From the NCBI RefSeq assembly GCF_003334385.1, contig NZ_QOWN01000002.1: DNA of 64,000 nucleotides; one strand, given 5' to 3'. The notes under the pieces were generated by a model. That model was given only the letters and a program-made list of their open reading frames with translations. It had not been told where the DNA came from and did no database searches. Source of the stretch: Escherichia coli (GTDB taxonomy: Bacteria > Pseudomonadota > Gammaproteobacteria > Enterobacterales > Enterobacteriaceae). The stretch's first letter is position 1. The number at the start of each line of letters is the position of its first letter. Shown piece after piece: positions 13,622 through 64,000 of this stretch. Both the position numbers and the translations under genes were made by a program.

Positions 13622-13998
<377 letters not shown>

Positions 13999-59052: not shown

Positions 59053-61725
59053 TTAAGCAATGGTACGTTGGATCTCGATGATTTCGAATACTTCGATCAC
59101 ATCGCCAGTGCGGACGTCGTTGTAGTTCTTAACGCCGATACCACATTCCATACCGTTACGGACTTCGTTAACGTCATCTTTGAAGCGGCGCAGGGACTCC
59201 AGCTCGCCTTCGTAGATAACCACGTTGTCACGCAGAACGCGGATCGGGTTGTGACGTTTAACCACACCTTCGGTAACCATACAGCCTGCGATGGCACCAA
59301 ATTTCGGCGATTTGAACACGTCACGAACTTCCGCCAGACCGATAATCTGCTGTTTCAGTTCCGGAGACAGCATACCGCTCATCGCCGCTTTCACTTCGTC
59401 AATCAGGTTATAGATGACGGAGTAGTAACGCAGATCCAGGCTTTCCGCTTCAATCACTTTACGTGCAGAGGCATCAGCACGTACGTTAAAGCCAACCAGG
59501 ATGGCGTTGGACGCCGCAGCCAGGGTGGCGTCGGTTTCGGTGATACCACCTACGCCAGAACCGATGATCTTCACTTTAACTTCGTCAGTAGACAGTTTCA
59601 GCAAGGAGTCGGAGATCGCTTCGACAGAACCCTGTACGTCTGCCTTCAGGACGATATTCACTTCGTGAACTTCGCCTTCGGTCATGTTGGCGAACATGTT
59701 CTCGAGTTTAGATTTCTGCTGACGCGCCAGTTTAACTTCGCGGAATTTACCCTGACGATAGAGTGCAACTTCACGCGCTTTCTTCTCGTCACGTACAACG
59801 GTAACTTCATCACCCGCAGCCGGTACGCCGGACAGGCCGAGGATTTCCACCGGAATGGACGGACCCGCTTCCAGCACTTCCTGACCCAGTTCGTTACGCA
59901 TCGCACGAACACGACCGTATTCGAAGCCACACAGAACGATATCGCCCTTGTGCAGAGTACCTTCACGTACCAGAACGGTAGCAACCGGACCACGACCTTT
60001 ATCGAGGAAGGATTCGATAACCGCACCGCTCGCCATACCTTTACGTACCGCTTTCAGCTCCAGAACTTCCGCCTGCAGCAGGATAGCGTCCAGCAGTTCA
60101 TCGATACCGGTACCCGCTTTCGCAGATACGTGTACGAACTGGCTTTCACCGCCCCACTCTTCCGGCAGGATGCCGTACTGGGAGAGTTCGTTCTTAACGC
60201 GATCCGGATCAGCTTCTGGTTTATCGATCTTGTTCACTGCAACCACCACCGGTACCTGCGCCGCTTTCGCGTGCTGGATTGCTTCGATGGTCTGCGGCAT
60301 CACACCGTCGTCGGCAGCAACAACCAGGACTACGATGTCCGTTGCCTGCGCACCACGAGCACGCATTGAAGTAAACGCGGCGTGCCCCGGGGTGTCCAGG
60401 AAGGTGATCATGCCGTTTTCAGTTTCAACGTGGTATGCACCAATGTGCTGGGTAATGCCGCCCGCTTCGCCAGAGGCCACTTTCGTTGAACGAATGTAGT
60501 CCAGCAGAGAGGTTTTACCGTGGTCAACGTGACCCATGATGGTCACAACCGGCGCGCGCGGTTCAGCCGCAGCACCCGTGTCACGGTCGCTCATTACCGC
60601 CTCTTCCAGCTCGTTTTCACGACGCAGGATAACTTTATGGCCCATCTCTTCAGCAACCAGCTGTGCGGTTTCCTGATCGATAACCTGGTTGATGGTTGCC
60701 ATTGCGCCCAGTTTCATCATCGCTTTGATGACCTGAGAGCCTTTAACCGCCATCTTGTTCGCCAGTTCGCCAACGGTGATAGTTTCGCCGATCACAACGT
60801 CACGGTTAACGGCCTGAGCAGGCTTCTGGAAGCCTTGCTGCAGCGAAGAACCTTTACGTTTTCCGCCTTTACCGCCACGTACTGCTGCGCGTGCTTCTTC
60901 ACGATCAGCTTTTGATTCAGCGTGTTTGTTGCCTTTCTTCGGACGCGCTGCTTTCGCGTTACGACCACGGCCACGGCCGCCTTCGACTTCACGATCGCTT
61001 TCGTCTTCTGCCTGGCGAGCATGTTGAGAAGTAGTGACGTGATAATCGCTGGAATCTTCAGTCGGTTCCGCGTTATCAGTCCATTTGTTTTCTTCCGCCA
61101 TACGACGTGCTTCTTCAGCAACGCGACGTGCTTCTTCTTCGAGTTTACGACGCGCTTCTTCTTCAGCTTTACGCTTGAGCTCTGCAGCTTCCTGCTCACG
61201 GCGGGCTTTTTCAGCCTGGGCGTTTTTAGTCATATCGTCTTGTTGATTGCTCACTTTGTCTTTTTCCGCAGCTTCACGTTTCGCTTGTTCAGCAGCTTCA
61301 CGCTTAGCTTGTTCTGCGGCCTCACGTTCAGCTTTTTGTTGCGCCTCGCGTTTAGCCGATTCTTCTGCCTCACGACGGGCTTGCTCTTCCGCTTCACGCT
61401 GCGCTTGCTCTTCCGCTGCAAGGCGTTCAGCCTCTTGCGGATCGCGTTTCACAAAGGTGCGTTTCTTGCGGACTTCGATTTGTACCGATTTGCTTTTTCC
61501 ACCGGTACCAGGAATGTTAAGGGTGCTGCGTGTTTTACGTTGCAGCGTCAATTTGTCCGGGCCTGAATTTTTCTGATTCAGGTGGTCAATCAAAGTCTGT
61601 TTCTCTTGTGCAGACACAGAGTCGTCAGCAGACTTCCGGATACCTGCATCAGCAAATTGCTGTACCAGGCGTTCCACGGAGGTCTGTCGCTCTGCGGCCA
61701 GCGTTTTAATCGTTACATCTGTCAT
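59053..61725 (-). CDS. infB: Translation initiation factor IF-2, 890 aa (internal in-frame starts for IF2-beta/gamma at codons 158 GUG and 165 AUG)
   Basis: GTPase motifs [18 protein letters not shown]; Ala/Glu/Lys/Arg-rich repetitive N-terminal domain; V158 and M165 present. Confidence 0.97.
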
Positions 61726-61749: not shown

Positions 61750-63237
<1,488 letters not shown>

Positions 63238-63717: not shown

Positions 63718-63735
63718 GCCCACCCCCAAGACATA

Positions 63736-63800
63736 AAAAAAGGGCCTAAAGCCCAGTTATTCTGTAGTCAGATAACAAAAAACCCCGATAAATCGGGGCT
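63736..63800 (-). terminator. Two rho-independent terminator-like hairpins between metY and rimP
   Basis: Reverse strand agccccgat-tt-atcggggt + TTTTTT (about 63774-63800) and gggcttta-ggccc + TTTTTTT (about 63736-63760). Confidence 0.5.
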
Positions 63801-63923
63801 TTATATAACTGAACCCTATAACCGCAACTGCGGTCTGGAGCACTTTCCAGAAGGATTTTTTCAAATCCCACTACGAAGGCCGAAGTCTTCACAGTATATT
63901 TGAAAAAGGACTCTAAGGGAAAG

Positions 63924-64000
<77 letters not shown>

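Follow-up and report, generated by a model that had tools for sequence, protein, structure and literature searches.

Rare repeat-length alleles flank a conserved internal translation start in the infB gene of Escherichia coli

The initiation factor IF2 of Escherichia coli is produced in three forms, IF2-1, IF2-2 and IF2-3, through tandem (intracistronic) translation of the infB gene, the shorter forms starting at the in-frame codons GUG158 and AUG165. The short isoforms are without the 157-residue domain I, which binds NusA, and are lost when the two internal start codons are mutated. Published Ribo-RET data show initiation peaks at the internal site, IF2-2/3 increase relative to IF2-1 in cold shock, and IF2-2/3 remain expressed in a deletion that begins upstream of AUG1 and stops 32 nt short of GUG158. 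The locus described here is this same one, with no difference from it, and the origin of three isoforms from one gene is textbook biology, to which an earlier, sequence-only reading of the window (the whole 64,000-nt stretch of E. coli DNA that was analysed) adds nothing new. In-frame internal starts with a truncated second product detected by Ribo-RET are also found in the E. coli genes clpB and mrcB. Like these, infB yields an N-terminally truncated product from a single gene, but here two repeat-coded helices enclose the internal site, which comprises two start codons seven codons apart.

Changes of length in the N-terminal region of IF2 are known from laboratory selection. Two reports (Stokes 2014, PMC4371806; RNA Biol 2023, PMC10486304) describe lamotrigine-resistance alleles of infB, which are spontaneous in-frame deletions and a single short duplication within the N-terminal region that is rich in repeats. 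As reported there, 20 independent lamotrigine suppressors fell into four classes only (PMC4371806), and the IF2-delta-8 and delta-17 (residues 176-192) variants were viable with wild-type growth (PMC4371806, PMC10486304). The natural alleles of repeat block 2 described below (-8, -7 and +7 residues) resemble these in type. The lamotrigine-resistance alleles lie in domain II, in block 2, downstream of the internal starts, and differ in this from block 1, the segment flagged by the sequence-only reading.

Two broader classes of repeat-coded element offer further comparisons. Coding minisatellites, with in-frame repeat polymorphism, include those of the TolA helical domain and of cell-surface proteins. 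The infB units resemble them in being multiples of 3 nt, in probable rare slippage at microhomologies and in the independent recurrence of the same allele, and differ in that length alleles are very infrequent (about 0.3-1% of complete E. coli genomes), that infB is an essential housekeeping gene and that nothing is switched on or off. Single alpha-helix (SAH) spacers of the ER/K type occur, for example, in myosin VI and X. The likeness of the IF2 segment to these lies in its uninterrupted predicted helix, in Glu alternating with Arg/Lys at i+3/i+4 and in length changes by whole units; by contrast, it is less charged and contains more alanine, and the literature calls it a flexible linker or disordered.

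The gene occupies the following position in the window, as established by the ORF list, its translation and Pfam matches:
59053..61725, minus strand: infB coding sequence (IF2-alpha, 890 aa)
It is located between nusA (61750-63237) and rbfA, in the operon context metY-rimP-nusA-infB-rbfA-truB, with NusA, RbfA, TruB and RimP ORFs flanking it and a rimP leader and tRNA-Met upstream. A Pfam scan recovered the complete domain set of the bacterial initiation factor IF2: IF2_N (1-50 and 314-364), IF2_assoc (56-94) and GTP_EFTU (393-549), followed in the C-terminal part by EF-G_D2 (565-644), IF-2 (665-779) and GTP_EFTU_D2 (810-877); the product also matches the PDB chains 3jcj_f and 1nd9_A. An annotated infB is present in 5,426/5,426 complete E. 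coli genomes, with nusA annotated adjoining it in every genome retrieved for the allele check. Over the region discussed below, the window allele is identical to that of many sequenced strains, including K-12 derivatives.

Two repeat blocks lie in the N-terminal part of the gene, both identified by Tandem Repeats Finder (TRF), a repeat search and the natural alleles mapping to them, and block 1 also by lag statistics:
61255..61413, minus strand: repeat block 1, made up of units U1-U7 (24 nt / 8 aa), codons 105-157, the last a partial unit, AEKDK
61087..61170, minus strand: repeat block 2, residues 186-213, units of 21/24 nt, inside a predicted helix at residues 165-216
Block 1 consists of six and a half units with the pattern (E/A)EQA(K/R)REA and ends directly at GUG158. 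It extends slightly past the originally flagged interval of 61230-61400, with a degenerate unit reaching ~61437. TRF reported two period-24 arrays, one at 61260-61334 with 3.1 copies and 82% matches, the other at 61361-61417 with 2.4 copies and 84% matches, and the repeat search found seven copies in register, spaced by 24 nt, between 61240 and 61416. At lag 24, DNA identity was 0.71, compared with 0.38 +/- 0.04 in codon shuffles (z = 8.2; reached by 0/5000 shuffles), and peptide identity at lag 8 was 0.66, compared with 0.20 +/- 0.055 (z = 8.3). The sequence-only reading had placed imperfect tandem DNA repeats coding for a charged block in infB, and all of this holds: the gene is infB, the quoted peptide is present in the 890-aa translation of the minus-strand ORF 59053..61725, and the repeats exceed chance by z of about 8. 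When codons were resampled synonymously, lag-24 identity was 0.707 against 0.668 +/- 0.023 (z = 1.7, p about 0.06), and the longest exact run at this lag was 15 nt against a mean of 12.4. The resampling suggests that the 24-nt DNA periodicity is essentially a by-product of the 8-residue peptide repeat; lag-24 identity being slightly over the peptide-only expectation, there may be some DNA-level homogenisation of block 1 units. Block 2, which is part of all three IF2 isoforms, appears in TRF rows 61090-61137 and 61110-61173; it follows closely downstream on the internal starts and had no part in the sequence-only finding.

Within E. coli, the length of the infB repeats varies, which is the new finding here. 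Unit-precise, in-frame alleles (-96, -24, -21, +21, +24 or +48 nt) are carried by no fewer than 52 of 5,426 complete genomes. This tally comes from 11 verified junctions only, searched with 40-nt pyrimidine spacers, and is a minimum, since the remaining matches of earlier junction libraries may include further junction types. Among these, 18 genomes carry block 1 alleles, comprising nine DNA alleles that range from -32 to +16 residues, and the natural block 2 alleles are -21, +21 and -24 nt (-7, +7 and -8 residues). Microhomology is present at the junctions in N68 (-96 nt), 2824 and N18-04097 (-24 nt each), CNR20191027 (-24 nt), H32 and AH21H025 (-21 nt each), CMZE046 (+21 nt), Al Ain, DETEC-S565 and NR301 (+24 nt each), M15 (+24 and +24 nt) and OkiPb01695 (+48 nt). 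The carriers of block 2 alleles include H32, AH21H025, AR_0149, CMZE046 and CNR20191027. Every length allele is in frame, with the CDS annotated intact. The same change recurs on different SNP backgrounds, as seen for -21 in H32 and AH21H025 and for +24 at nt 423 in M15 and DETEC-S565, and the protein accession WP_000133053.1 is common to the unrelated assemblies Al Ain and DETEC-S565. Genus-level length differences are also located in block 1 and mostly correspond to whole 8-residue units. Repeat-driven indels, which the sequence-only reading had proposed for the flagged block, do occur: the invariant length that it named as a refutation is contradicted by the at least 52 of 5,426 genomes, 18 of them with changes in that block.

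The searches behind this tally differed in what they could detect. A plain megablast of the region against the 5,426 genomes surfaced N68 (-96) only, as its weakest row, since matches with 24-nt indels split into pieces that are hidden in identity bands. A first library of 132 hypothetical deletion/duplication junctions, containing no wild-type 28-mer and searched at E <= 1, matched 2,375 records, an excess caused by common-lineage SNPs that recreate hypothetical junction words; it nonetheless revealed the first true length alleles. A second library, with 164 junctions set in three SNP backgrounds (E <= 1e-7, 6-nt spacers), gave spurious strong E-values, for example in the CFT073 lineage, because alignments crossed the 6-nt spacers into adjacent segments. 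Six candidates, HNSQ2209 (G573A), IBS28 and ECP19-598 (both G510A), EC5 (G538A), CFT073 (A417G) and 2018-18.25PC, were rejected as SNP false positives of wild-type length. Also rejected was the interpretation of infB as a phase-variable contingency locus, because all alleles are in frame; the units are of 24 or 21 nt, with no on/off switching.

At the protein level, structure prediction places the repeats in two helices separated by a hinge, the latter delimited by AlphaFold2 (AF2) pLDDT and low mRNA structure:
61258..61440, minus strand: predicted continuous alpha-helix, residues 96-156 (block 1 and the degenerate leading unit), from AlphaFold2
61234..61257, minus strand: hinge KVSNQQDD, residues 157-164, separating the two predicted helices
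With a 27-sequence alignment, AlphaFold2 predicted a helix at residues 96-156 (mean pLDDT of 10-residue blocks 68-89) and another at 165-216, with pLDDT <50 at residues 158-164; the protein homologue search gave mostly fragmentary IF2 N-termini, which sufficed for the alignment but not for statistics on length. The first helix has 24 opposite-charge pairs at i+3/i+4, versus 15.4 +/- 3.1 in shuffled sequences (p about 0.007), and the second has 36, versus 15.1 +/- 2.9 (p <0.0005). Leu102 is the sole large aliphatic residue within 100-157. The sequence features of ER/K helices are all present, namely a long predicted helix, charge-pair enrichment and no hydrophobic heptad seam, and residues 96-156 are ~52% charged and 30% Ala. 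Classical ER/K helices have a higher share of charged residues than this. Modelling predicts that residues 96-156 form one long, salt-bridge-stabilised ER/K-like helix. In the NusA paper, what follows subdomain N1 is called a 'flexible linker', and another paper treats the same region of IF2 as intrinsically disordered.

The internal starts lie at the hinge, directly after block 1:
61252..61254, minus strand: GUG158, the IF2-beta (IF2-2) start, from the sequence and from published g474c, which abolishes IF2-2
61231..61233, minus strand: AUG165, the IF2-gamma (IF2-3) start, from the sequence and from published t494c, which abolishes IF2-3
61252..61269, minus strand: core of the internal initiation region, GCGGAAAAAGACAAAGUG, ending in GUG158 and forming the partial last repeat unit, from synonymous-site invariance
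The two codons are in frame and seven codons apart, and their positions agree with g474c and t494c; the sequence-only reading was right to take V158 (GUG) and M165 (AUG), immediately downstream of the repeat, for the published IF2-beta/gamma starts, and the internal initiation signal that it proposed as a check exists in the published Ribo-RET peaks. The GCG, GAA, AAA and GTG codons of the core are each invariant at synonymous sites in 9/9 Enterobacterales, while nearby codons for other conserved Ala, Lys, Arg and Glu residues vary across the nine, and GCGGAAA...AAAGUG is kept although unit number differs (Val at residue 158-181). An equivalent of AUG165 is found in only 5/9 of those sampled. 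In all natural alleles, at least 48 nt upstream of GUG158 are identical. The best anti-SD duplex for GUG158 is GGAA, about 10 nt upstream (-3.5 kcal/mol), compared with -1.9 for AUG165 and -6.5 for AUG1, and pairing as good or better occurs at 31% (against GUG158) and 66% (against AUG165) of all infB codons. The predicted opening energy of the GUG158/AUG165 region is 3-5 kcal/mol, compared with a median of 11.5 over 447 codon-anchored windows (top 1-2%), so that nothing in the 5' 1,400 nt is more accessible than the start windows; the mRNA at the hinge and just downstream is likewise the least structured stretch predicted in the 5' half of infB.

Taken together, the observations are best explained, with a probability of about 0.82, by a helical spacer built from a peptide repeat and a separate, conserved start site, the alleles changing the length of the spacer and not the start. 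The segment codes for the C-terminal half of IF2 domain I, an 8-residue repeat with abundant Glu, Ala, Gln, Lys and Arg, its predicted helix linking the NusA-binding N-terminal subdomain to the remainder of IF2. Exact matches of 8-15 nt between adjacent units would permit occasional replication slippage or unequal recombination, the presumed source of the rare in-frame alleles, with exact units gained or lost, that natural strains tolerate. The IF2-beta/gamma start would be a distinct element, conserved, A-rich, weakly SD-dependent and unstructured, placed in the hinge between two repeat-coded helices. Since such an element appears from the literature to need at most about 32 nt of upstream sequence, changes of copy number would lengthen or shorten the spacer specific to IF2-alpha by 8 residues at a time (about 1.2 nm if helical) and leave the start site itself as it is.

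A role for the repeats at the mRNA level, in which the flanking purine-rich blocks hold the internal start single-stranded and are retained partly for SD-poor initiation, appears unlikely. Blocks 1 and 2 are indeed 67-68% purine, compared with 56.5% for the whole of infB, of the 447 windows in the first 1,400 nt those at the start site are the most open, and SD-like pairing is weak at both internal codons (-3.5 and -1.9 against -6.5 kcal/mol for AUG1). However, 300 synonymous recodings of both flanking blocks left GUG158 open (5.44 +/- 0.51, native 5.12) and AUG165 likewise (3.73 +/- 0.30, native 4.13), and thus gave no sign of codon-level optimisation of start-site accessibility; the openness follows instead from amino-acid composition and the local A-rich sequence. 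Moreover, the published deletion removes almost all of block 1, and IF2-2/3 are still made.

The sequence-only reading had further suggested that repeat indels could change the isoform ratio; slippage would then alter the sequence context, or the spacing, ahead of GUG158/AUG165, tuning IF2-alpha against IF2-beta/gamma. Unit-number alleles do exist directly upstream of GUG158, and a change of ratio would matter, because an optimal isoform mix is needed for maximal growth according to the literature; IF2-2/3 also increase relative to IF2-1 in cold shock. This claim is nevertheless unsupported, and such tuning seems very improbable: the at least 48 nt preceding GUG158 are unchanged in every allele and what lies beyond is a near-identical replacement unit, IF2-2/3 persist after deletion to 32 nt before GUG158, the predicted opening energy of GUG158 is 4.9-5.1 kcal/mol in block 1 alleles compared with 5.12 in the window allele (a shift of at most 0.2 kcal/mol), and the start-site sequence is invariant across genera with Val at residue 158 to 181. 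Nothing in these sequence comparisons and predictions indicates that repeat number shifts the balance of IF2 forms. That neither repeat nor polymorphism is real, the region being chance low-complexity sequence or an assembly artefact, deserves hardly any credence, and is refuted for the repeat itself, for although the composition is biased (E, A, K, R, Q) and several screen matches were single-SNP false positives, 0/5,000 codon shuffles reach the lag-24 identity and the length alleles are exact unit multiples, in frame, with intact CDS, some sharing RefSeq protein accessions across unrelated assemblies (WP_000133053.1).

In a phase-separation preprint, removal of the first 294 aa led to fewer IF2 condensates and the IF2 beta isoform lost most phase separation, and recent work ties the N-terminal disordered region to cold-induced condensates. 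Given the functions known for domain I and the disordered region, and the lamotrigine indels, the natural alleles are ready-made material on spacer length. It is doubtful, though conceivable, that the two repeat-coded helices are naturally tunable spacers whose rare, recurrent unit-number alleles are selected and not the outcome of neutral slippage. If they were, block 2 alleles would mimic the lamotrigine-resistance or cold-phenotype alleles of the laboratory, and block 1 alleles would alter how far the NusA-binding N1 subdomain reaches, or how readily IF2-alpha phase-separates. The gain here is a modest one, namely that the length of the infB repeat varies in E. coli, recurrently, without touching the conserved internal start region; if spacer length were without importance, the repeat would be simply a tolerant linker.

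The repeat lies in infB, as the sequence-only reading had assigned it: the 890-residue product has the complete domain architecture of translation initiation factor IF2 (Pfam) and matches E. coli IF2 chains 3jcj_f and 1nd9_A (N-terminal subdomain) in a PDB search. The gene is flanked by nusA upstream and by rbfA and truB downstream, with the rimP leader and a tRNA-Met further upstream. Three in-frame starts are known in infB, and IF2-beta and IF2-gamma, which differ by seven residues, both lack the 157-residue domain I. The assignment of V158 and M165 as the internal starts also holds, as the published coordinates coincide exactly with these codons of the window, and published ribosome profiling with retapamulin has specific initiation peaks at the known internal site of infB.

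Features of infB and its repeats
59053-61725, minus: infB open reading frame, 2,673 nt (by translation)
61255-61413, minus: block 1, 8-codon units, coding nt 313-471
61252-61254, minus: GTG158, directly after block 1
61231-61233, minus: ATG165, seven codons past GTG158
61234-61257, minus: residues 157-164, hinge between two predicted helices
61087-61170, minus: block 2, 21/24-nt units including VAEEARR, just downstream of the internal starts (TRF, repeat search)

Block 1 is the charged tandem repeat claimed upstream of V158 and M165, and its units read EEQAQREA, EEQARREA, EESAKREA, QQKAEREA, AEQAKREA, AEQAKREA and a partial AEKDK (U1-U7). Its repetitive nature is confirmed by period-24 arrays (TRF), by a separate repeat search giving seven in-register copies at 24-nt spacing, and by a lag-24 DNA identity of 0.71, against 0.38 +/- 0.04 in codon shuffles (z = 8.2, 0/5,000); the lag-8 peptide identity is 0.66 against 0.20 (z = 8.3). 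Because synonymous resampling of the same peptide already gives an expected lag-24 identity of 0.668 +/- 0.023 (observed excess z = 1.7), the DNA repeat is essentially imposed by the peptide repeat. Units U2-U4 (~61340-61400, minus) carry a GAGG core (CGUGAGGC, CGCGAGGC and CGUGAGGC), a Shine-Dalgarno (SD)-like motif stronger than anything preceding GUG158; no start codon was seen at SD spacing from these cores. An out-of-frame GUG (cGUGAa) is present in most block 1 units.

Ordinary BLAST summaries hide 24-nt indels, and libraries of hypothetical repeat-mediated junctions were therefore built, sharing no 28-mer with wild-type infB, so that only allele carriers can seed a megablast hit. Candidates were checked by annotated CDS length and alignment, and a final clean search used only the 11 verified junctions against 5,426 complete E. 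coli genomes. It matched 53 genomes, one a false positive, leaving at least 52 carriers (~1%; ~0.4% once a clonal series and one duplicate assembly are collapsed), with nine DNA alleles among the 18 carriers in block 1. Slippage-type indel alleles thus exist, and repeat length is not invariant across strains, ranging in E. coli from -96 to +48 nt.

Verified repeat alleles and their carriers
Block 1, -96 nt, four units: N68
Block 1, -24, one AEQAKREA unit: 2824
Block 1, -24 at U1/U2: N18-04097, Z1323PEC0008
Block 1, +24, U5 duplicated: O157 Al Ain, WS4437A-1
Block 1, +24, U6 duplicated: DETEC-S565, N10, N25, 23CRST038
Block 1, +24, U4 duplicated: NR301
Block 1, +24, U1 duplicated: XJ5.2, BS74R-D, AST198, IAL7250
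Block 1, +24 and +24, U1 and U6: M15, CM185152
Block 1, +48, U5-U6: OkiPb01695
Block 2, -21: H32, AR_0149, AH21H025
Block 2, +21: CMZE046
Block 2, -24: CNR20191027 and the 28-member clonal 'Esc' series

Every junction falls at 5-15-nt microhomology between units. The -21 allele (H32 and AH21H025) and the +24 at nt 423 (M15 and DETEC-S565) each occur on clearly different SNP backgrounds, implying independent origins. Between genera, too, the length of this part of IF2 differs within the repeat, in most cases by complete 8-residue units. The common synonymous lineage SNPs A417G, G510A and G573A (infB nt) make one unit resemble another (L004, L013, L015, L017, L026), with the result that they passed for hypothetical recombination junctions in the screen; they could have arisen by chance or through a homogenisation of units akin to gene conversion.

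All 5,426 genomes give a match to a 776-nt query taken from the 5' portion of infB, always at annotated infB, with >=99% identity in 5,337. Some genomes have up to five matching places for query 60950-61725 and up to three for 61216-61435, and one match is on a plasmid record; duplication, misassembly or fragmentary sequence may account for them.

Other features in and around infB
60922-61566, plus: ORF antisense to infB, 214 aa
61247-61576, plus: ORF antisense to infB, 109 aa
58654-60369, plus: ORF antisense to infB, 571 aa
58966-59036, minus: naRNA4 (nucleoid-associated REP-type RNA), infB-rbfA spacer (Rfam, gathering score)
13622-13998: RNase P RNA
56938-57109: SraG
57339-57453: S15 leader
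63735-63835: rimP leader
63924-64000: tRNA-Met (metY), ending on the last base of the window

The last five (Rfam/ARAGORN) are expected for the region. Opposite the repeat, the antisense ORFs are rich in Phe, Ser, Ala, Cys and Leu, mirroring GAA/GCN codons, and nothing points to a gene. A heat-evolved strain described in one paper carries an IS10R insertion in the infB-rbfA spacer.

While the gene, the starts and the slippage alleles of the sequence-only reading stand, its proposed consequence, a changed IF2 isoform ratio, is unsupported, with the start-site flank, predicted accessibility and a published deletion arguing against it. The sequence before GUG158 is unaltered over 48 nt or more in every block 1 allele, and farther upstream a near-identical unit takes the place of the original. 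IF2-2/3 (beta and gamma) are still made in a published deletion that starts upstream of AUG1 and ends 32 nt short of GUG158. The window allele has a predicted GUG158 opening energy of 5.12 kcal/mol; all block 1 alleles lie at 4.9-5.1 kcal/mol, and a shift, of ~1 kcal/mol, comes from one block 2 allele only. No part of the first 1,400 nt is predicted to be more accessible than the start region (its 35-nt windows open at 3-5 kcal/mol, median 11.5; top 1-2%), and SD-like pairing is weak (GUG158 -3.5 and AUG165 -1.9, against -6.5 kcal/mol for AUG1). Accessibility stays the same when the repeat blocks on both sides are recoded synonymously (300 samples), so that there is no sign of codon-level tuning in the flanks. 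Among nine Enterobacterales (N-terminal-region identity 67-100%), the IF2-beta Val codon is GTG in all nine, and the preceding GCG (-5), GAA (-4) and AAA (-1) show no synonymous variation, with several codons used further upstream for Ala, Lys, Arg and Glu residues of equal conservation; AUG165 has a counterpart in only five. The start-site sequence is unchanged among genera with the Val at residues 158 to 181. A small quantitative effect of repeat alleles on the ratio is possible.

Block 1 most likely encodes an ER/K-type single helix, judging from structure prediction and charge pattern. The AlphaFold2 prediction from an alignment of 27 sequences has one continuous helix at residues 96-156, a low-confidence hinge at 158-164, the exact stretch separating the beta and gamma starts, and a second helix at 165-216 that includes block 2. 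Enrichment in i+3/i+4 opposite-charge pairs is the signature of ER/K-type single helices, and the IF2 repeat regions are likewise enriched (24 against 15.4 +/- 3.1 in shuffles for the first helix, 36 against 15.1 +/- 2.9 for the second). The literature terms the region a flexible linker or intrinsically disordered, so that the stable helix is a reading inferred from these data. Gain or loss of block 1 units would alter the length of the alpha-specific connector.

Block 2, with its own natural alleles, sits in the domain where lamotrigine-resistance in-frame indels map. Each of 20 independent lamotrigine suppressors in this domain II carried either an in-frame deletion from one of three classes or the one short duplication, and IF2-delta-8 and delta-17 (residues 176-192) have also been described. 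The natural -21, +21 and -24 alleles found in genomes are in-frame indels of the same kind. The repeat and internal starts of infB are a long-known feature, to which the within-species catalogue of repeat alleles is a small, useful addition.
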